Assembly (NCBI GenBank): GCA_050743265.1
Contig: JBOGEN010000069.1
Span: 1,987-65,986, forward strand
DNA length: 64,000 nucleotides
Source of the DNA: Actinomycetes bacterium
GTDB lineage: Bacteria > Actinomycetota > Actinomycetes > JBOGEN01
Direction of reading: 5' to 3'
Shown: one piece after another, positions 3,812 through 37,395 of the stretch
How positions within the stretch are numbered: position 1 is the stretch's first letter
Layout: each line of letters begins with the position of its first letter
The notes under the pieces: model-generated
What the model saw: the letters and a program-made list of their open reading frames with translations, nothing else
Told to the model about the DNA's origin: nothing
Database searches by the model: none
Position numbers and translations under genes: made by a program

Positions 3812-3902
3812 CCCGGGCGCCCGGCTCGGCTCTGACCTGCCAGGCCCCGACAGGACACCGGCGTGGTCCACCCGTGCTGACGAGCCCCCGGCCGGCCACG
3901 CA

Positions 3903-3932
3903 TTGACATCCAAATATGTCTGTCGGTTAGAT
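3903..3932 (+). promoter_or_regulatory. Sigma-70-like promoter (TTGACA, 18-nt spacer, TTAGAT) upstream of rpiB
   Basis: The hexamers are spaced canonically in an AT-rich patch about 80 nt upstream of the rpiB ATG; a GGGGGG..CCCC hairpin lies in the leader. Confidence 0.4.
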
Positions 3933-4010
3933 GCTGCGCGTCATGGGGGGATGATTTGCCCCAGTTTCGGAGGTTTCTGTTTCTGTCGCCGGACCAGCCG
4001 GAGGACCCTG

Positions 4011-4503
4011 ATGCGCGTCACTCTCGGTAACGACCATGCAGGGCTCGGCCTCAAAAGGCCATGTCCGCCACGTCCTCGACTCGATGGGTGTCGACATGGT
4101 CGACGTGGGGACGCACGACACCGCGCCAGTCGACTTCCCCGACGTCACCCGCCAGGTCTGCGACCCCGTCCGGCGGAGCGAGGCAGACCGCGGCGTCCTG
4201 CTCTGCGGCACGGGGGTGGGCGCGGCCATCGCGGCCAACAAGATCCCGGGCATCCGGGCAGCACTGTGCCATGACACGTTCTGCGCCCACCAGGGCGTCG
4301 AGCACGACGACGTCAACGTCGTGTGTCTAGGCGCGTGGATCGTCGGACCGATCATCGCCGAGGACGTCGTCCGCGCCTTCCTCACGGCGTCGTTCAGCAC
4401 GGACGAGGACTTCCGCAGACGCGTGACGAAGCTCCACCACATGGAACGGCTGGCCGCGGCCGAACTCGGAGCCACCACGGCCGAACCCGGAGGCACCTCA
4501 TGA
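4011..4503 (+). pseudogene. rpiB: Ribose-5-phosphate isomerase B (RpiB/LacAB family) carrying a +1 frameshift in an A4 run
   Basis: The N-terminus 'MRVTLGNDHAGLGLK' is in frame 0 (GGAGGA RBS). The remainder, 'GHVRHVLDSMGVDMVDVGTHD...CGTGVGAAIAANKIPGIRAALCHD...', is in frame +1. The junction falls exactly at 'ctcAAAAggc' (4053-4056); removing one A restores a colinear RpiB. Confidence 0.7.
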
Positions 4504-5959
4504 CCACGTCACCCGGCCAGCCGCCGACGGTCCCGTCCGTCGGGACCCTCAGCTACCCCGACCCCCCGCCGCAGCTCACCCGGCGGTTGACGCTCGTCGG
4601 CGCGGTCAGCGTCCTCGGGCCGGGCGCCATCATCGCCTCGGCCAACATCGGCAGTGGCGAGATGATCTTCGCGTCCCGCGGGGGCTCCATCTTTGGCTAC
4701 GCGCTGATCTAGGCCTTCATCGTCGCCGCCATTACGAAGGCCGCGCTGGCGTACTCGATGAACCGCTACACCGTCGTGGCGGGCGAGCACCCGATGACGC
4801 GCTTGGCGACCCTCTTCCCTGGGCCCAAGGGATGGTTCCCCCTGGTGTTCGGCGCGACGTCCATCGCGGTAGTGCCGTCGTGGGTGAGCGGGCTCGGGCT
4901 CGGGATCGGCGACCTCATCGCCGAGGGCACCGTGGGCACCGGAACCGCGTGGGCGACCTTCCTGATCGTGCTCTCTGCCGTCCTCGCGTGGGTCGGCGGC
5001 TACGACCGCATGGAGAAGGCGCAGACCGTCATCGTCGGGTTCATGCTGCTCGCCGTCGCGGTGAGCGTCGTGGTGCTCCGACCCGACTGGCTCGGCGTCC
5101 TCGGCGGCCTCGTGCCGACGATCCCCGAGTACGCGGGCTGGCTCGAAGCCGACTACCCCGACATTGCCGCACGCTCCCGGTGGCTCGAGGTGGGGGCGTA
5201 CCTCGCGCGATCGGTGGCGGCACGTACGACTACATCGCCTACGCCGGCATGCTGCGCGAGAAGAAGTGGGGGCTGCTGGAGCACCGGGACATCGCCAGCC
5301 TGACCGAGCGGTTCGAGAACGCCGGCCGCGGAGGTGAGCGCCTGCCCCTCTCGACCGACTCGGCGGAGGTGGCGAAGGGCAGGGCATGGTCCCGGGTGCC
5401 GCTCGGCGACGCGGCCATCTCGTTCTCCGCGATCGTGCTTTTCGCGTCGATGTTCATGATCAACGGGGCGTCGCTGCTGTCCGAGGACCAGCTCGTCCCC
5501 GCGGAGGACCAGACCCTCACCCACCAGGCCGGCTTCCTCGAAGCGATCCACCCGACATTCGTGTACCTCTACTACGTCGCGGTGCTCTTCGCGTTCTTCG
5601 GTTCGCTGTACGCGTTCTGGGAGATGTACAGCTACACCGCGTACGAGAGCCTCGGCGCGGTCTCCGAGCGGGTACGCCTGGCCGGCCAGCGTGCGGTCCG
5701 CCCCTACATGTACGCGTACATGATGGTGGCTGCGCTCGTGCTCGTGTGGACCGTGGGCGAGCTGGTCGTCATCGTCACTCCGGCGTCCGTCCTCGGCGGC
5801 CTGCTCATGTGCGGCGTGTTCTGCCTCGCGATCGTCTGGACCGAGCACAAGGTGCTGCCGAAGGAGTACCGCCTGACGACCCCGGGCCGGTGGTGGGTGC
5901 TCGTGTCCGGGTTGATGCTCATGATCCTCGGCGTCGTGTCGACCTGGGAGCTGTTCTAG
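4500..5959 (+). pseudogene. mntH: NRAMP-family divalent-metal (Mn2+/Fe2+) transporter MntH, disrupted by an in-frame TAG and a -1 frameshift
   Basis: The start forms ATGA with the rpiB stop and has a GGAGG RBS. The protein 'LGPGAIIASANIGSGEMIFASRGGSIFGYALI*AFIVAAITKAALAYSMNRYTVVAGEHPM...' is in a single frame, with TAG at 4710-4712 where NRAMPs carry the conserved Trp (GY.LLW). The C-terminal half (from '...GGGTYDYIAYAGMLREKKW' onward) moves to the -1 frame near 5205-5210, inside a GCGCG repeat. Confidence 0.7.
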
Positions 5960-6349
5960 GTGGCCGGCATGAGACCCGGAGCTGCCGTCGCCGCGGCGTG
6001 CCTCGCGCTGCTGTCCTGCCTTCGGTTCGTCGAGCAGGCGTACACCGGCGCCGTGGTGCTCGCTGCTCTCGCGCTCGGCGCGCTGGCCCTGGGCCTGCGT
6101 CGCGGCGGGGCGCCGGCCGCACCCGACCACGTGCCGTCGGCGGCGGAGCTGCACGCGGAGCAGGTGGTGCAGGACCGCTCCCGTCGCGGCTGGCGGTGGA
6201 TCGTGCTGCTCGGGCTCACGATCAGCGTCGTCGGCGCGGTCGTCTTCCCCCCAATGGGCCTGGTCGTCGCGGGCCTGACGCTGTACTCGGTTCACCGGAT
6301 GCGGCAGGCGAGCCGGTCCATGGCCGTGCTCGGCCGGGCCACGGGCTGA
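5960..6349 (+). CDS. Hypothetical small membrane protein
   Basis: It has two hydrophobic segments ('AAVAAACLALLSCL', 'WIVLLGLTISVVGAVVFPPMGLVVAGLTLY'); there is no homology I recognise. Confidence 0.35.
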   Translation: MAGMRPGAAVAAACLALLSCLRFVEQAYTGAVVLAALALGALALGLRRGGAPAAPDHVPSAAELHAEQVVQDRSRRGWRWIVLLGLTISVVGAVVFPPMGLVVAGLTLYSVHRMRQASRSMAVLGRATG

Positions 6350-6403: not shown

Positions 6404-7111
6404 TCAGGACACGACGTCGGCGACGTGGGTGAAGGCGCCGACGTCGACCAGCGTGGCGAAGTCGGTGACGCGCGCCTGGATGCGTCCGGCGTTCTGCTGG
6501 AAGTCGTAGCCCATGTCGTTGACGAGGTCGGCCCACACGGCCCAGACGTACTGGGCGCCGAGCCCGTCGGCGGGCTCTCCGACCGCCTCACCGGACGCGT
6601 CGACCGGCAGGAGGAGACGGTGGCTGAAGCCCTTGGTGATCCGCGTCGGGTGGAGCAGCGAGCTGTCGGTGAACACGGAGGCGACAAGGTGGCTCCGGAA
6701 CGCCTCGGCGTCGCAGTCCCGGTGCAGGGCGAACCGGTAGTGCCCGATGAGGAGCACGTCCGGTGTCTTGTCCGACTCGAGGTCCGCCGCGTTCACGTGG
6801 GCGTCCACGCCGACGAGCGTGGCGTACTCGGCGACACGGTCCTGGAGGCGTGCGATGTTCTGGTCGAAGTCGTAGCCGCCCTGGACGAGGGTGACGGTGG
6901 CCTCCCACACGTACTGCGGGGAGAGCCGGTCGCTCGCCGGCTCGGAGAGGTCCCGCGCGTCCGTGACGCGCAGCAGCCGGTGGCGGAAGCCACTGGTCAC
7001 CCGGGTCAGCTGGAGCCCCTCGGGGATCACCGACGTCGTGAGGTGGTTCTCGAACGCCGGCGCAGACGCGTCCGGACGAAGCGCGAAGCGGTAGTGCCCT
7101 GTCATCAGCAT
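6404..7111 (-). CDS. Hypothetical protein made of two tandem ~110-aa repeats (alpha+beta barrel-like domain)
   Basis: Repeat 1 is 'MLMTGHYRFALRPD...YVWEATVTLVQGGYDFDQNIARLQDRVAEYATLVGVDAHV'. Repeat 2 is 'LLIGHYRFALHRD...YVWAVWADLVNDMGYDFQQNAGRIQARVTDFATLVDVGAF'. The start was chosen at MLM, with GGGGAGGG 8 nt upstream. Confidence 0.6.
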   Translation of the reverse strand: MLMTGHYRFALRPDASAPAFENHLTTSVIPEGLQLTRVTSGFRHRLLRVTDARDLSEPASDRLSPQYVWEATVTLVQGGYDFDQNIARLQDRVAEYATLVGVDAHVNAADLESDKTPDVLLIGHYRFALHRDCDAEAFRSHLVASVFTDSSLLHPTRITKGFSHRLLLPVDASGEAVGEPADGLGAQYVWAVWADLVNDMGYDFQQNAGRIQARVTDFATLVDVGAFTHVADVVS

Positions 7112-7329
7112 GACGGCGCCCTCCCCGTGACCCCCGTGCCGGGGCTGTCTCCCCACAGTCGGCGCAAGACCAGGGCCCGTCAACCAGGTGATCTCCGGCT
7201 GGAACCCGGCGTCCAGGCGTCCGAAAACGGTCCGAAACGGCGCCCTCCGGGCGATCGCCACCGGGGAGGGCCGGGCCGCGGCACACTCGGCGGGAGCATC
7301 CCGGCCGTCTGCCGAGCACAGGAGCGCCC

Positions 7330-14927: not shown

Positions 14928-17069
14928 ATGGACCTGGTCTCTCGAGTCGCGACATCGACGGTCGGCCTGCTGGCCGCTGTCGTGCTCGCGTACCCGCTCC
15001 TCCCCCTGCCCGCCGGAGCGCAGACGTGGCTGTACAACGGGCTGGCCGTCTCGGCGCTCGCGCTGGGCTTCGCCGGGGTGGTCCGCCACCGACCGGTTCG
15101 GCGCTCCGGCTGGTTCCTGATCCTCACCGGCTTCACCGGGTGGGTGCTCGGCGACGTCGTGTACTCGCTGGAGCAGACCGTATGGCACCTGCAGACCTAC
15201 CCGGCACCCTCGGACGCCTTCTTCCTTGGGTCGTACGCGTTCCTCGGGGCCGGAGCCCTGCTGATGGTGCGCACCCGTCGGGCCGGCCGGGACATTACGG
15301 CATTCCTGGACGCGGCGATCATCGCGGTCGGCACGGGTGTAGTGGCGGCGGTGTTCGTGGTCGCACCTCTCGCGTCGGACTCCGGCCTGACGCTGGCAGG
15401 AAAGCTGGTCAGCTCCGCGTACCCCCTCGGTGACCTGCTGCTGCTCGGCATCCTCGTCCGCCTGTGGGCAACTCCGGGGGCTCGGACGTCCGCGTTCCGC
15501 CTGCTCACCGCCGCGCTCGCGTTCACGCTCGCCGCCGACGCGGTGTGGAACTTCACGATCGTCACCACGGGTCAGTTCACCGCCTGGACGTGGAACGAGG
15601 CGCTGTGGCTGGCCAGCTACGTGGCGGTCTGCGCCTCCGCGTGGGTCCCGTCCATGCGGACTCTGGCCGAGCCCGCCCCCGACCGCGAGGAGAATGCGCC
15701 GACGCGCCGCCGCCTCGCCGCCCTGGCCTGCGGGCTGACGCTGCCCGGTGTCGCCCTGCTGCTCGACGGTGCCGCTGACGGGGAGGTCTCCTGGCAGATC
15801 ACCGGCATCGGGTCGCTGCTGCTCTGCCTGCTCGTGCTGATCCGCATGGCCGGCCTGCTGCACATCGTGCAGGCCCAGGCGGTCCGCCTCGCCGGGCTCG
15901 CCCGCGCGGATGCGCTCACCGGCGCGCCGAACCGCCGGACGTGGGACCACGAGCTGTCCCGGGCCTGCCAGGTGGCGCACGACACCGACCAGCCGCTCAG
16001 CGTCGCCATGCTCGACCTCGACCACTTCAAGGCGTACAACGACGCCCACGGCCACCAGGCGGGTGACCTGCTGCTCCGCGAGGCCGTGGCGGTCTGGACC
16101 GACCAGCTCGGCCCCGCCGGCTTCCTCGCCCGCTACGGCGGGGAGGAGTTCGCGCTGCTCCTGCCCGGCCTCACCTCCGAGCAGGCCAGGACGCGCATGG
16201 ACGCCCTGCGCTCCCTGACCCCGCGGCAGCAGACGTTCTCCGCCGGCGTCGCCACGTGGGACCCGACAACCGAGCCGGGCACAGCGGTAGCGGAGGCCGA
16301 CCAGGCGCTGTACGAGGCCAAGCGCGCCGGCCGCAACCGCGTCGCGCTCGCCCGCCCGGGCCGCGCGGGGTCGGTCGTGCCCGTTCCCCGGATCGCCCTG
16401 CAGCCCATCGTCGACCTCGACACCGGCGAGGTCCTGGCCGTCGAGGCGCTCAGCCGCTTCGACCACGGCAGCCCCGTCGAGGTGTTCGCGCAGGCGTACC
16501 GCGAGGGCAGCGGCGCCGCACTCGAAGCCGCGGCCGTCCGCGCCGCACTGGCCCACCGCAGCGACCACCGCCTGCTCTGCATCAACGTCAGCCTGCCGGC
16601 GTTGATCACGCCGGAGGTCCAGGACGCCCTGCCCTACGATCTATCCAGGGTCGTGCTCGAGATCACCGAAGGCACCGCGATCGACGGCACGCAGGCGCTC
16701 TCCGACCTCCTCGCCGAGCTGCGTGGGCGCGGGGCTCATCTCGCGATCGACGACTGGGGCCAGGGTTTCTCCAACCTCGACCGCATCCTCAGCATCCAGC
16801 CCGAGACCATCAAGATCGACATGTCGATCACCCAGAACCTCCACACCGCGTACCACCGCGCTGCCATCCGGGCCATCGCCGCCTGGGCAGACGAGGTCGG
16901 CGCCACGATCTGCGCCGAGGGCATCGAGACCGTCGCCCAGCGGGACGCCCTCCGGGCCCTCGGCATCCGACTCGGCCAGGGCTACCTCCTCGGCCGGCCG
17001 GAGATCCCGGCGACGCCCGAGACCCGCACGCAGGGCCAGCTGGCCTCTCCCATGACGCGCAGGAGCTAG
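14928..17069 (+). CDS. Membrane sensor diguanylate cyclase/phosphodiesterase (GGDEF-EAL)
   Basis: About 8 N-terminal transmembrane helices; the GGDEF domain contains 'RYGGEEFALL' and the EAL domain contains 'EALSRF...DDWGQGFSNL'. Confidence 0.9.
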   Translation: MDLVSRVATSTVGLLAAVVLAYPLLPLPAGAQTWLYNGLAVSALALGFAGVVRHRPVRRSGWFLILTGFTGWVLGDVVYSLEQTVWHLQTYPAPSDAFFLGSYAFLGAGALLMVRTRRAGRDITAFLDAAIIAVGTGVVAAVFVVAPLASDSGLTLAGKLVSSAYPLGDLLLLGILVRLWATPGARTSAFRLLTAALAFTLAADAVWNFTIVTTGQFTAWTWNEALWLASYVAVCASAWVPSMRTLAEPAPDREENAPTRRRLAALACGLTLPGVALLLDGAADGEVSWQITGIGSLLLCLLVLIRMAGLLHIVQAQAVRLAGLARADALTGAPNRRTWDHELSRACQVAHDTDQPLSVAMLDLDHFKAYNDAHGHQAGDLLLREAVAVWTDQLGPAGFLARYGGEEFALLLPGLTSEQARTRMDALRSLTPRQQTFSAGVATWDPTTEPGTAVAEADQALYEAKRAGRNRVALARPGRAGSVVPVPRIALQPIVDLDTGEVLAVEALSRFDHGSPVEVFAQAYREGSGAALEAAAVRAALAHRSDHRLLCINVSLPALITPEVQDALPYDLSRVVLEITEGTAIDGTQALSDLLAELRGRGAHLAIDDWGQGFSNLDRILSIQPETIKIDMSITQNLHTAYHRAAIRAIAAWADEVGATICAEGIETVAQRDALRALGIRLGQGYLLGRPEIPATPETRTQGQLASPMTRRS

Positions 17070-17243
17070 CTAGGGCGGGCCCGTTCCCGGGTCCATCTGG
17101 GTGCACCTGCCCCCCACCGCTCACCCTCACGAGGCCTCCTGTCGATAGGGCAGGTCAGCGAGCCGCCGACCACCCAGATGCCGGGCGGCACGCCAGAGCC
17201 GAGGCTCTCGCCGCGGCCCGGAAACCCGGACTCGAGGAGACCA

Positions 17244-19406
17244 GTGAGCGACAAGCCCGCGCCCGATGGCACGGCCGCCATCGACGCGTCCCCCGCGGAC
17301 GCCGCCTCCTCCGGGGGTCGTGCGACCCTGGCTCACCGCCTGCTCTGGGCCCTGGTCGCCATGCTCCTCCCGGTGATGGCGGTCGTGGTGTCGGGCATGG
17401 TGACCTTCCAATCCTCGGTCGGTGCACTCGAGCAGTTCCGCCACGAGACGGTGGAGGAGGCCAGCGTCATCGAGGGGCTCCGCGACCGCCTGTCAGCCGC
17501 AGACGACGCGGGTGAGGCGGTCGTCGAGGGTGGCAAGCCCCTCTCGAGCGGGGAGTTCAACCGTCTGGCCGGGCGCATCGATGCCGACTTCGACCACCTC
17601 ACCATGCTCGACGCGCACCAGGAACGCCACATGCTCGCCAAGGCCCAAGAGATTTGGGCGATCTCGTACGACGACCTACGCACCGCCGCCCGAAAGTCGG
17701 ACGGCACCAACGCGGACGCCCTGCTCGACCCCTTCCACGACCACATCGACCAGGCCGTGTCGGCCCTGGCTGACCTGCACGCGTACCAGGGCAAGCAGGT
17801 CGCGAGCGAGATCACGTCCCTCCGCGGTCGGGAGCAGGTCCAGCTCCTCCTTGCCCTGGGGGGTCTCGCCGTTGGCCTTGTGCTGGCCGTGGGCCTGGCC
17901 TGGCGGTTGCGCCGGTCCATCACACGTCCTCTCCACGAGCTGGAGACCGCCGCGTCCACGTTCGGCGCCGACGACTTCACCCACCGTGTCGGGGTGCGCG
18001 GTGACGACGAGCTGGCGCGGGTGGGCCGGGCGTTCAACTCGATGGCGGCCAAGCTGGAGAAGAGCCGGTCCGAGCTGGAGCACCACGCCCTCCACGACGG
18101 CCTCACCGGCCTGCCCAACCGGGTGCTGTTCATGGAGCGGTTGGATCACGCGCTGGCCCGCGCCCAGCGGAGAGGGACGCCCGTCTCGGTGCTGTACGTC
18201 GACCTGGACGACTTCAAGATCGTGAATGACACGCTCGGGCACGAGGCCGGCGACAGGCTGCTCATCGCGTGCTCGGAGCGGCTGCTCACCTGCGTCCGTC
18301 TCGAGGACACCGTCGCCCGCCTGGGTGGGGACGAGTTCGGCATCCTTATCGAGGACACCGGCGAGAGCGCGGCGACCGCGGCGACCCGCATCACCCAAGC
18401 GTTCAGCAGCGTCTGGCCGGTCATCGGCGGCCAGGTCGCGGTCAGGGCCAGCGTGGGTGTCGCGACCCTCGACGGTCACGGTGACGTCGACCATCTGCTG
18501 CGCCAGGCCGACGCCGCCATGTACGCCGCGAAGGCGCAGGGCAAGGGCACCTGGCGGATCTTCGGACGAGAGCTGGACGCCGACGTCCTCAAGGCACAGC
18601 GGACGCGGCTCGAGCTCAGCACAGCCATCGAGCGGGGCGAGCTCGTCGCCCACTACCAGCCGCTCGTCGACCTCGACTCCGGGACCATCGAAGGGGTCGA
18701 GGCGCTCGTGCGGTGGGGGCACCCCGAGCGCGGCCTGTTGTCCCCAGCCGAGTTCCTCGACGTCGCCGAGCAGAGCGGGCAGGTGCTCGACATCGACGCC
18801 TTCATGCTGCGTGAGGCCTGCCAGCAGGTCAGGACGTGGCAGCGCCGGTCCGCGGCGACCGCCGACATGTACGTCAGCGTGAACCTCTCGGCACAGCAGC
18901 TGCACCGTCCTCGCGTCGCCGAGCGGGTCGCCGAGGCGCTCGACGCGTCCGGACTGGCGCCGCACCACCTGGTCCTGGAGATCACCGAGTCCGCCCTCAT
19001 CCACGACACCAGGACCGCGGCGGCCGAGCTCGCGCGCATCAAGGGCCTGGGCGTACGCCTGGCGCTCGACGACTTCGGGACGGGCTACTCCTCGTTGAGC
19101 CACCTGCTCCGTTTCCCGATCGACATCATCAAGATCGACAAGTCGTTCGTCTCGGCCATCGGCGAGGACCCCATGTCCGAGCTCGCGCTGGGTCTGGTCA
19201 AGCTCGCCAGGGCCATGCACCTGAAGACCGTGGCCGAAGGCGTCGAGACCGAGCGGCAGCTGCGCGCCCTGCGCCAAGTGCTCTGCGAGAGCGGTCAGGG
19301 CTTCTACTTCGCCGCGGGACTCCCTGCCGCGGAGATGGCGGAACTGCTGCCCGACGGGGCCGTGGGCTCGGCCATGGCCATCTCCCCCGCCGTACGCGGC
19401 GCCTAG
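17244..19406 (+). CDS. Sensor protein with periplasmic domain, HAMP, GGDEF and EAL domains
   Basis: 'RLGGDEFGILI' (GGDEF) and 'EALVRW...DDFGTGYSSLSHL' (EAL). The GTG start at 17244 is preceded by GAGGAG; an alternative ATG lies at 17178. Confidence 0.85.
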   Translation: MSDKPAPDGTAAIDASPADAASSGGRATLAHRLLWALVAMLLPVMAVVVSGMVTFQSSVGALEQFRHETVEEASVIEGLRDRLSAADDAGEAVVEGGKPLSSGEFNRLAGRIDADFDHLTMLDAHQERHMLAKAQEIWAISYDDLRTAARKSDGTNADALLDPFHDHIDQAVSALADLHAYQGKQVASEITSLRGREQVQLLLALGGLAVGLVLAVGLAWRLRRSITRPLHELETAASTFGADDFTHRVGVRGDDELARVGRAFNSMAAKLEKSRSELEHHALHDGLTGLPNRVLFMERLDHALARAQRRGTPVSVLYVDLDDFKIVNDTLGHEAGDRLLIACSERLLTCVRLEDTVARLGGDEFGILIEDTGESAATAATRITQAFSSVWPVIGGQVAVRASVGVATLDGHGDVDHLLRQADAAMYAAKAQGKGTWRIFGRELDADVLKAQRTRLELSTAIERGELVAHYQPLVDLDSGTIEGVEALVRWGHPERGLLSPAEFLDVAEQSGQVLDIDAFMLREACQQVRTWQRRSAATADMYVSVNLSAQQLHRPRVAERVAEALDASGLAPHHLVLEITESALIHDTRTAAAELARIKGLGVRLALDDFGTGYSSLSHLLRFPIDIIKIDKSFVSAIGEDPMSELALGLVKLARAMHLKTVAEGVETERQLRALRQVLCESGQGFYFAAGLPAAEMAELLPDGAVGSAMAISPAVRGA

Positions 19407-30758: not shown

Positions 30759-30974
30759 ATGGCCCAGCAGCACGTTCTGCCGTCGCCTGCGCCGGCACCC
30801 ACACCGATCCCCGTGCGGGACGTCGCGCCCTGGGCGGCGCTCGTCACCCTTCTCGCACTCGCGGTGCTCTACTTCGTCTCCGCCGATGCCGGCGCGACGT
30901 CCGTGTTCTCCGGCGACTACGTGCACGAGTTCATGCACGACGGCCGCCACCTGCTCGGCTTCCCCTGCCACTGA
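30759..30974 (+). CDS. cbtB: Cobalt transporter subunit CbtB
   Basis: AAGGAGG RBS; a single transmembrane helix and the C-terminal His-rich motif 'HEFMHDGRHLLGFPCH'. Confidence 0.8.
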   Translation: MAQQHVLPSPAPAPTPIPVRDVAPWAALVTLLALAVLYFVSADAGATSVFSGDYVHEFMHDGRHLLGFPCH

Positions 30975-31735
30975 TGGCGGCGGGTTCCCCGGCCCGCGGC
31001 TTCCTCGTCCGCGGTCTGCTGGTCGGCGTCGCGGCCGGGCTCGCTGCCTTCGTCGTCGCGTACGTCCTGGGCGAGCCCGGCGTGAGGGATGCCATCGGCG
31101 TCGAGGAGGCTGCGGCACAAGCCGCCGGCGGGCATGCGCACGAGGAGGCGCTCGTCAGCCGGTCCGTGCAGAGCACACTGGGGCTGGGCACGGCCATGCT
31201 CGGCTTCGGAGCGTCCTTCGGGGGGCTGTTCGGGCTCGCCTTCGCGGTCGCGTACGGCCGGCTGGGCAGTCTCGGGGCCCGGGCCACCGCGGCGGTGCTC
31301 GCCGTGGTCGGGTTCGTCGCCATCAGCCTGGTGCCGTTCGTGAAGTACCCGGCGAACCCCCCGGCCGTCGGCGACCCCGAGACCATCGGGCGGCGCACCA
31401 GCCTCTACTTCCTCATGCTGGTGCTCTCCCTGCTGTTCGTCGCCGCTGCGACCTACCTCGCGCGGCGGCTCCCGCTCGGAACGTGGGACCGGGTGCTGGC
31501 CGGTGGCGGCGCGTACCTCGTGCTCGTCGTCGCGGGCATGGCCGTGATGCCACAGGTCAACGAGGTCGGCTCGGCGTTCCCGCCCACCGTGCTGTGGAGC
31601 TTCCGTGCCGGGTCGCTCGCGACCCTGCTCACGGTGTGGCTGGTGCTCGGCGTCCTCTACGGCCTGCTCACCGAGCGTGCCGAGGCACGGGGCAGGGCGC
31701 CGGCCGCTTACCGTACGGTCGCCACCCACCCGTAG
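30974..31735 (+). CDS. cbtA: Cobalt transporter subunit CbtA
   Basis: ATGA overlap with cbtB; a multi-transmembrane protein with a His-containing loop 'AAGGHAHEEAL'. Confidence 0.8.
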   Translation: MAAGSPARGFLVRGLLVGVAAGLAAFVVAYVLGEPGVRDAIGVEEAAAQAAGGHAHEEALVSRSVQSTLGLGTAMLGFGASFGGLFGLAFAVAYGRLGSLGARATAAVLAVVGFVAISLVPFVKYPANPPAVGDPETIGRRTSLYFLMLVLSLLFVAAATYLARRLPLGTWDRVLAGGGAYLVLVVAGMAVMPQVNEVGSAFPPTVLWSFRAGSLATLLTVWLVLGVLYGLLTERAEARGRAPAAYRTVATHP

Positions 31736-36102: not shown

Positions 36103-37395
36103 CTAGCCGGCGTCGGTGCCCTGGTAGCCACGGCTGTACACGGGCTGCTCGAGGAACTCCTTCGGGTCGTACGTCCAGAACTGGCTGACCTTCGGGAAGG
36201 TCTTGGTCGGGACGTTCACGAGCCCGCCGTCCCGCTTCACGACCTTGCGCACGTACACGTTGGACACCGGGCTGTCGTACTCGTCGAGCCGCATCGGCCC
36301 CATCGCCGAGTCCTCGAGCGACACGCCGCGTACCGCCTCGAGGAAGGCCTTGCGGTTCGAAAGGTCACCGTCGACGTCCTCGATCGCCTGGGTCAGCCAC
36401 TGGGCTGCGGTGTACATGGCGCCGGAGTAGTACGAGGGCACCTTGCCGTACCTGTCCTGGTAGGACGCGGCGAAGTCCTGCGTCGCGGGGCTCTCACGCC
36501 CCTCGGCGAAGTGCCCCACCGAGACCAGTCCCTCGGCCTCGTCGCCCATCCCGCGGAGGAGCGACTGGTCCAGCGTCGTCTCCCCGCCGAGGAGCGGCAG
36601 CGAGCCCTTGAGCCCGAAGTCGCTCCAGGCCTTGACGAACTTGGGTCCCTCGGCGCCGACGGTCTCGACGAAGGCGGCGTCCGCGTTCGTGTCCTTGATC
36701 TGCGCCATGTACGTACTGAAGTCCTGCGTGCCGAGGGGGTGCCACAGCTGCTTGACGACCGTGCCCCCCGCGTCGGTGAACGTGTTGACGAAGCCTCCGC
36801 AGGTCTCGTGGCCGAACGCGTAGTCGGTGCACTGGGTGACGATGCGCCGGTACCCCTGGTCGTACGCCCATTGCCCGAAGGGGTGCGTGGTCTGGCTGCT
36901 CGTCCAGCCCGCCACCCGGATGACACCGGGAAGTCGCTCGCGCTGCGTGAGGTCGTCGGCCGAGACCACCGGAAGGAAGATCGGCACGTCCTGCCGGCTC
37001 ATCTCCTCGGCGACGGCGAGCCCGACGTTCGAGAGCAGCGGCCCGACGATGAAGTCGACGCCCTCGCTCTCGACGAGGCGCTGGGCCTTGTTGAGGCCGG
37101 TGGCCGGGTCACCCGCCGTGTCCTCGTCGACGATCTCGACCGTCTTGCCGGCGATCTTCATGCCGTGCTCTTTGAAGTAGAGGTTCCAGCCGTTGAGCAT
37201 GTCCTGGCCGCTGGCCGCCACGGCGCCCGTCTGCGGGGCGAGCACGCCGATCTTGATGGTGTCCGAGTCACCGGCACGCTGCGGGTGGGCCTCCTCCCCG
37301 CCGGGAGCCGAGCAGGCGGCTGCCAGCACGAGGCCGGTCCCCGCGGCGAGAGCCGCCCGCCACCCGTACCACGTTCCTCGTCCTCGCCTGGTCAT
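36103..37395 (-). CDS. ABC transporter substrate-binding lipoprotein (type-1 periplasmic binding protein, Liv/amide-binding family)
   Basis: Lipobox 'LAAAC' and 'IKIGVLAPQTGAVAASG'. Confidence 0.9.
   Translation of the reverse strand: MTRRGRGTWYGWRAALAAGTGLVLAAACSAPGGEEAHPQRAGDSDTIKIGVLAPQTGAVAASGQDMLNGWNLYFKEHGMKIAGKTVEIVDEDTAGDPATGLNKAQRLVESEGVDFIVGPLLSNVGLAVAEEMSRQDVPIFLPVVSADDLTQRERLPGVIRVAGWTSSQTTHPFGQWAYDQGYRRIVTQCTDYAFGHETCGGFVNTFTDAGGTVVKQLWHPLGTQDFSTYMAQIKDTNADAAFVETVGAEGPKFVKAWSDFGLKGSLPLLGGETTLDQSLLRGMGDEAEGLVSVGHFAEGRESPATQDFAASYQDRYGKVPSYYSGAMYTAAQWLTQAIEDVDGDLSNRKAFLEAVRGVSLEDSAMGPMRLDEYDSPVSNVYVRKVVKRDGGLVNVPTKTFPKVSQFWTYDPKEFLEQPVYSRGYQGTDAG

Follow-up and report, generated by a model that had tools for sequence, protein, structure and literature searches.

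What does a locus mean in which two adjacent genes keep their translation signals and are nevertheless interrupted, and does it tell anything about the metal physiology of the organism that carries it? The question is raised by contig JBOGEN010000069.1 of a high-GC Actinomycetes bacterium, of which we analysed a stretch of 64,000 nucleotides (hereafter the window, to which all coordinates refer) containing an rpiB-family isomerase gene followed by a gene for an NRAMP-like transporter. An earlier sequence-only reading had described the pair as an rpiB-mntH operon with an intact promoter and three disabling lesions, produced either by recent pseudogenisation of a Mn/Fe uptake function or by a locally poor assembly. 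We found that both genes are interrupted, relative to their full-length orthologues, by three independent lesions, and that the transporter is a distant NRAMP-fold relative and not MntH. The locus probably represents what is left, after recent inactivation, of an accessory sugar-utilisation cassette, the substrate of which would be ribose or another pentose. The two genes and their lesions are the following.

4011-4503, plus strand: gene of an rpiB-family sugar-phosphate isomerase, broken by a 1-nucleotide insertion at codon 15/16 (Pfam, NCBIfam, split tblastn match)
4053-4056, plus strand: lesion 1, AAAA run with one extra A (DNA alignment, run count)
4500-5959, plus strand: gene of an NRAMP-like transporter, broken by a nonsense codon and a 1-nucleotide deletion (distant PF01566 clade, NCBIfam NF037982)
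4710-4712, plus strand: lesion 2, TAG for TGG (G-to-A transition) at the invariant Trp71 (alignment with relatives)
5202-5207, plus strand: lesion 3, 1-nucleotide deletion in which one G of a Gly codon is gone (...YL-G-AIGGG...; tblastn, DNA alignment)

The lesions were checked at protein level, by tblastn with orthologues, and by DNA alignment with six orthologous loci; the family scores given below are those of the repaired, that is lesion-corrected, products. The close relatives are Nocardioides spp., metagenome-assembled genomes (MAGs) of Nocardioidaceae, Streptomyces hazeniae and one Logan metagenome contig. The first gene runs from the ATG at 4011 to the stop at 4501-4503, and its repaired product has 163 residues. 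Two orthologous RpiB proteins match it in two pieces, with residues 1-15/16 on 4011-4055/4058 and residues 11 onward (11-149 in the match that ends at 4458) on 4042-4458/4479, in a different frame. The window reads CTCAAAAGG where the six relatives have CTCAAG-GA or CTGAAA-CC, a one-base surplus in a run of A, which is one of four A runs of at least four bases in the whole window. Translation from 4011 goes out of frame and meets a stop at 4272-4274, and a possible restart at the ATG at 4036 would give a product devoid of the N-terminal GNDHAG active-site segment. The start codon of the transporter gene, at 4500, overlaps the rpiB stop as ATGA. At lesion 2 every aligned relative reads TGG, and two protein alignments have Trp here in 14/14 and 31/31 homologues; translation ends at this codon with a product of 70 residues, and what follows in the gene is additionally frameshifted. 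The second shift is at 5204/5205, where the window has CTC-GCGCG and the relatives CTCGGCGCG or CTGGGGGCG, and past this point the remaining 250 residues run in another frame to the TAG at 5957-5959. Once repaired, the transporter has 486 residues; the best homologue (P0001) among 5.8 billion proteins searched shows 86% identity to it along the full length, and the Nocardioides-type proteins 77-83%. The three lesions thus lie where they had been placed from the sequence, the amber codon does fall on an invariant Trp, and the proposed comparison with orthologous loci showed no interruption at any of the three sites in the orthologues. According to our own calculation, three lesions placed uniformly in 64 kb would share a stretch of 1.95 kb with a chance of about 0.003, and therefore their clustering is non-random. 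A 29-mer across the TAG site, with A or G allowed, found no exact match in metagenome contigs, and a search for proteins identical to three of those encoded in the window gave no hit.

Interrupted genes could still give full-length proteins by functional recoding, which here would combine programmed +1/-1 frameshifting with stop read-through. Its sole support is that the repaired open reading frames (ORFs) line up perfectly and that ribosome-binding sites and coupling are intact. On the other hand, recoding would have to take place in three different ways within 1.2 kb, neither an Rfam element nor a conserved stimulatory structure was found, and an A4 run is not known as an efficient shift site. 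Recoding was rejected because no orthologue has a shift or a stop at any of the three sites, and we consider it extremely improbable.

A generally poor assembly of the window is not supported. The rest of the window contains 50 other ORFs with complete Pfam domain coverage and no split domains and, in a codon log-odds scan of its whole length, only the fragment 4713-5207 was flagged as having both no start and a lost tail. Moreover, no further lesion or frameshift was detected in spite of 157 G/C runs of at least five bases and 326 GATC sites, which makes a generic homopolymer- or motif-linked sequencing error unlikely. A specific link with GATC was also considered, since this motif occurs no more than 6 nucleotides away from two of the three lesions; the link was dropped, being post hoc and marginal (P of about 0.035), with no other lesion at any of the 326 sites.

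A more restricted explanation is that local errors in sequencing or assembly produced all three lesions, and that the organism carries an intact rpiB-transporter operon. Several observations weigh in this direction and against real decay. Two of the three lesions are 1-nucleotide indels in short runs, and sequencing errors are most often single-base indels. In the repaired genes there is no sign of relaxed selection, with ratios of nonsynonymous to synonymous substitution rates (dN/dS) against orthologues of 0.14-0.25, the same as in intact pairs; the transporter has no private substitution at invariant columns, and RpiB a single conservative one (V to M). None of the ribosome-binding sites, the start codons or the ATGA overlap is damaged, which fits very recent decay and artefact equally well, and the proximity of two lesions to GATC goes the same way. 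For recent decay few neutral changes are expected, and the dN/dS and private-substitution tests have low power: the lack of a signal of relaxed selection indicates that the inactivation, if real, is recent, and such tests cannot separate decay from artefact. By contrast, no other broken gene was seen among at least 50 genes in 62 kb, so that some peculiarity of this spot would have to account for three errors within 1.95 kb of a contig interior that is clean elsewhere. In addition, one lesion of the three is a base substitution and not an indel, and a change such as TGG to TAG is atypical of consensus errors.

The relatives provided two further lines of evidence for decay. The first is that orthologous transporter genes are demonstrably broken in other assemblies. 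We compared 22 transporter loci from 21 distinct genomes (two loci represent one place), and the same NRAMP-like gene was broken in four of them, the window included, the three others being independent cases. In Pseudonocardia sp. CNS-004, an isolate whose contig name records a coverage of about 74x, the gene has a 2-nucleotide deletion (L011:6060-6200). A Pseudonocardia MAG shows a 1-nucleotide deletion followed by TAA (L015:6540-6640), and in a Propionibacteriales MAG (L017:1050-1300) a deletion of about 1.9 kb fuses residue ~169 of PfkB to residue ~308 of the transporter.

The second is the absence of the partner genes. In the relatives, the two genes belong to a six-gene cassette encoding, in this order, a LacI regulator, a PfkB kinase, RpiB, the NRAMP-like transporter, a small membrane protein and a beta-hydroxyacid dehydrogenase; all seven relatives at 77-86% identity hold this cassette or its remains. 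The best NCBIfam match of the regulator is RbsR, and the kinase scores 280 bits on the ribokinase model TIGR02152 (cut-off 300). The small membrane protein, of 119-126 residues in the close relatives, has no family assignment. Nucleotide homology between the window and the relatives extends only from 3998, 13 nucleotides before the rpiB ATG, to 6349, and the window keeps only the three central genes in an unrelated neighbourhood. The parts of this block that flank the two broken genes, together with the putative promoter, are listed here.

3903-3933, plus strand: putative promoter, with TTGACA at 3903-3908 and a weak -10-like TTAGAT/TAGATG (sequence only)
3998-4010, plus strand: start of the block homologous to the relatives, with the rpiB ribosome-binding site GGAGG at 4000-4004 (blastn, MAFFT)
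5969-6349, plus strand: gene of the small membrane protein (126 residues), intact and always 3' of the transporter; the homologous block ends at its stop (alignment)

The small ORF of the window had no Pfam or NCBIfam match; it is 70% identical over 121 residues to its orthologue in locus L021, with a dN/dS of 0.20. No LacI, PfkB or orthologous dehydrogenase gene is present anywhere in the 64 kb, and a very permissive tblastn search of the flanks (E up to 50) for traces of pfkB, lacI and the dehydrogenase gave only noise. A search for repeats around the block, as scars of mobile elements, returned only short matches at chance level in GC-rich sequence. Two facts speak against a loss of the outer genes: the ends of the block coincide with gene ends, and Pseudonocardia nigra has a stand-alone operon made of regulator, rpiB, transporter and small ORF. 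For this reason the truncated cassette is something that we infer, and not a demonstrated deletion.

With the missing partner genes and the independent breakage of orthologous transporters, we consider it likely that the lesions are real and reflect recent pseudogenisation, their presence in the organism rather than in the assembly being inferred; local error appears rather unlikely. Of the two causes proposed from the sequence, recent pseudogenisation is therefore the better supported. The block might have become dispensable after its separation from kinase and regulator, or in a niche without the substrate. Selection on it would then have been relaxed and neutral mutations could have built up, namely a slippage insertion in the A run, a G-to-A transition giving the amber codon and the deletion of a single G; the block would now be decaying neutrally.

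As regards the signals for expression, the original description was accurate for translation, with GGAGG 6 nucleotides ahead of the ATG of both genes and the ATGA coupling preserved. The claim of an intact promoter was not confirmed: TTGACA is present, but a promoter scan upstream of rpiB gave 0 sites, with no acceptable -35/-10 pair. The 190 nucleotides upstream of rpiB are a spacer of lower GC content (0.585 at 3900-4099) with no counterpart in the relatives, in which the kinase gene directly precedes rpiB. An Rfam search upstream of rpiB and over the whole window found no match to a riboswitch or leader RNA.

The name of the first gene was correct at the level of the family. Its product covers positions 1-138/138 of the Pfam profile LacAB_rpiB (PF02502) with 157 bits, and passes the NCBIfam model of the RpiB subfamily, PRK05571 (168.5 bits, cut-off 135). 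On the strict rpiB equivalog model the repaired protein remains just below the cut-off (133.5 against 138.65 bits), which the orthologue of locus L021 passes with 141.9, and the model of the actinobacterial housekeeping Rpi, TIGR02133, is not reached (124.9 against 168.2 bits). As judged from these profiles, the gene encodes a predicted full-length paralogue of the RpiB/LacAB family and not the actinobacterial housekeeping Rpi.

The name of the second gene, mntH, could not be maintained. The repaired transporter does score as an NRAMP relative, with 43.6 bits on Pfam Nramp PF01566 (gathering threshold 29.8), in the N-terminal half only, and 110.8 bits on NCBIfam NF037982, 'Nramp family divalent metal transporter' (cut-off 50). 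The MntH model PRK00701, which has a cut-off of 430 bits, gives it 32 bits and matches residues 35-207 only. When the family profile was aligned to PDB 10ky and human NRAMP2, GSGE was found opposite the DPGN metal motif of helix 1; among 31 homologues, Gly52, Gly54 and Glu55 (P0001 numbering) never vary. In the presumed helix-6 region the invariant motif is GGGTYDY...REKxWG, and no Met or His there is invariant. By sequence, the alignment to the solved NRAMPs is confined to the N-terminal half, and the C-terminal half does not align. An AlphaFold2 model of P0001, the orthologue that is 86% identical, had a predicted local distance difference test (pLDDT) of 84 and a predicted template-modelling score (pTM) of 0.86. 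Its best Foldseek matches were DraNramp, EleNRMT and BfraNramp, with E-values of about 1e-9 and target-normalised template-modelling scores (TM-scores) of 0.73-0.85; for DraNramp the TM-score was 0.68 when normalised to the query and 0.83 when normalised to the target, at 16% identity. After the NRAMP structures, the next matches were other transporters of the APC superfamily. According to this model, the transporter has a predicted NRAMP (LeuT-type) fold.

The genomic context of the transporter also differs from that of a metal importer. More distant members of the clade retain the pair of transporter and small ORF, the latter of 115-140 residues and without Pfam match, and in three of four distant neighbourhoods the pair lies with carbohydrate or organic-acid genes: GntR/FCD and RpiB, an MR_MLE enolase, FGGY kinases, a UxaA-like dehydratase and an IlvD/Edd dehydratase. 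In Georgenia alba the pair is on its own, and the genes next to it encode an SSF transporter, an amidohydrolase and a 2-hydroxyacid dehydrogenase. No metal-regulation gene adjoining the transporter was seen in the six neighbourhoods whose gene calls were listed; the nearest metal-related gene encodes a CopC domain, just downstream of the pair in G. alba. The clade, with GSGE and the small membrane ORF, spans Actinobacteria and Firmicutes, in clusters for the catabolism of sugars or sugar acids.

The question of metal physiology can be weighed on these data. If a Mn/Fe importer, MntH, had truly been lost, this would agree with the two family scores, with the good fit of the orthologue's model to the DraNramp fold (target-normalised) and with the report that YcsG, a divergent NRAMP of Bacillus subtilis encoded in the 5-oxoprolinase operon, imports Mn2+ (PMC10448178). 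The DxxN/AxxM signature, on the other hand, defines the metal site of classical NRAMPs, and also the NRMT (Mg2+) and NRAT (Al3+) branches keep its Asp (PMC8806188); in the window clade the helix-1 DxxN is GSGE, and the presumed helix-6 region is without a conserved Met or His. Because of the MntH score of 32 against 430 bits, of GSGE at the DxxN site, of an alignment confined to the N-terminal half and of the sugar-catabolic neighbours, with neither MntR nor metal genes next to the transporter, we conclude that the gene is not mntH, and the loss of a Mn/Fe importer is improbable. Nothing links the locus to Mn/Fe uptake or metal physiology, contrary to what had been suggested.

What the transporter carries can be addressed from its context, which, together with GSGE, hints at a substrate other than a metal or at a transporter of two subunits. 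Helix-1 IGSGE may be akin to GSG, the motif by which APC amino-acid transporters bind their substrates. Tentatively, the GSGE clade may import, instead of a metal, an organic compound on which the adjoining catabolic genes act (for instance ribose, some other pentose or a sugar acid); the repeated inactivation, in 4/22 loci, would then correspond to the frequent loss of a niche-specific carbon-source module. A literature search found no publication or experimental work on this clade.

For the strain, these results remove a false lead, in that they do not show the loss of a Mn/Fe importer; what has been lost is probably an accessory module for pentose-type utilisation. The same misreading is possible wherever annotation pipelines would label such a gene 'Nramp family divalent metal transporter'. 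The case also illustrates how a locus with several lesions can be judged without reads, namely from the integrity of the surrounding genes, the completeness of the cassette and recurrent decay in relatives. The pseudogene itself is an ordinary case; only the NRAMP-like clade, which lies in sugar operons together with a small partner ORF and decays recurrently, has discovery potential.

Some other features of the window were recorded. Directly downstream of the block, at 6404-7261 on the minus strand, an ORF of 285 residues without Pfam match contains an internal tandem duplication of 104 nucleotides (6408-6511 and 6774-6877, 74% identical and 366 nucleotides apart), which points to a two-repeat protein. 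A pair of tandem genes at 14928-19406, plus strand, encodes large GGDEF-EAL proteins of 713 and 742 residues, the second with a HAMP domain, and adjoins a cluster of peptide ABC transporter and peptidase genes (M19, M24, S33) at 19.4-28.4 kb. Coding phase is fragmented at 29.5-30.9 kb. The region 30807-31735 contains a CbtA cobalt-transporter gene (Pfam, 233 bits) and, ahead of it at 30807-30962, a short coding-like ORF that could be CbtB; no cobalamin riboswitch was found near the CbtA gene at the Rfam gathering threshold. The 87-nucleotide tRNA-Arg(GCG) predicted by ARAGORN at 37196-37282, plus strand, lies antisense within a complete Peripla_BP_6 gene (36103-37395, minus strand) and is probably a false positive. 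Finally, a compensated frameshift was considered at 517-884, where the G+C content at third codon positions shows a phase anomaly in the minus-strand ORF 3-2348 (PD-(D/E)XK nuclease family), and was set aside as probable compositional noise: here the ORF frame reads as a plausible protein, and the other two frames as strings rich in Arg, Pro and Gly.

Among known systems, the isomerase is comparable to RpiB/AlsB-type enzymes (ribose-5-phosphate or allose-6-phosphate isomerase B) and to those of rbs-type ribose operons, with which the window protein shares a full-length LacAB_rpiB domain; its 'LLCGTG' segment is of the Cys type, as in Escherichia coli RpiB. The likeness to rbs-type operons extends to the gene order of the relatives, where rpiB directly follows a ribokinase-like gene and an RbsR-like LacI regulator is present. 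The cassette differs from them in its transporter, which is NRAMP-like and neither RbsABC nor RbsU, and in the extra beta-hydroxyacid dehydrogenase.

With canonical NRAMP/MntH proteins (SLC11; proton-coupled importers of Mn2+/Fe2+ such as DraNramp, ScaDMT and E. coli MntH) the transporter has in common PF01566 over its N-terminal half and the fold, the model of the 86%-identical orthologue superposing best on DraNramp. Sequence identity is only 14-17%, the helix-1 metal motif is replaced by GSGE, the presumed helix-6 region reads GGGTYDY as described, and the window-clade protein is longer by about 70 residues than the solved bacterial NRAMP chains matched. Moreover, the window-clade gene is always followed by the small membrane ORF, within sugar-catabolic clusters. 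A further comparison is with NRMT, the NRAMP-related Mg2+ transporters represented by EleNRMT, and with the 'outgroup' clades of PF01566, which are likewise divergent prokaryotic members with an altered binding-site signature (PMC8806188, PMC9606685), EleNRMT being also among the best structural matches of the P0001 model. NRMTs, however, keep the helix-1 Asp (DxxG), whereas the window clade has Gly there and Glu at the Asn position, and no Mg-related genomic context was seen around the clade in the neighbourhoods examined.

The last comparison is with YcsG/MntG of B. subtilis and PxpT of Corynebacterium glutamicum, which are also encoded by NRAMP-family genes inside catabolic operons. The type of operon is different, with a sugar kinase and an isomerase here and a 5-oxoprolinase there, and the window clade is no closer to YcsG than to MntH (12% identity to the YcsG model, which ranks 17 among the structural matches). 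PxpT is needed for growth on 5-oxoproline and has been proposed as its importer (PMC13274462); the substrate of the YcsG/PxpT group is debated between the organic compound of the operon and Mn2+ (PMC13274462, PMC10448178). An NRAMP-fold clade without the metal site, located in sugar operons, adds to the question raised by YcsG and PxpT, that is, whether some relatives of NRAMP carry organic substrates.

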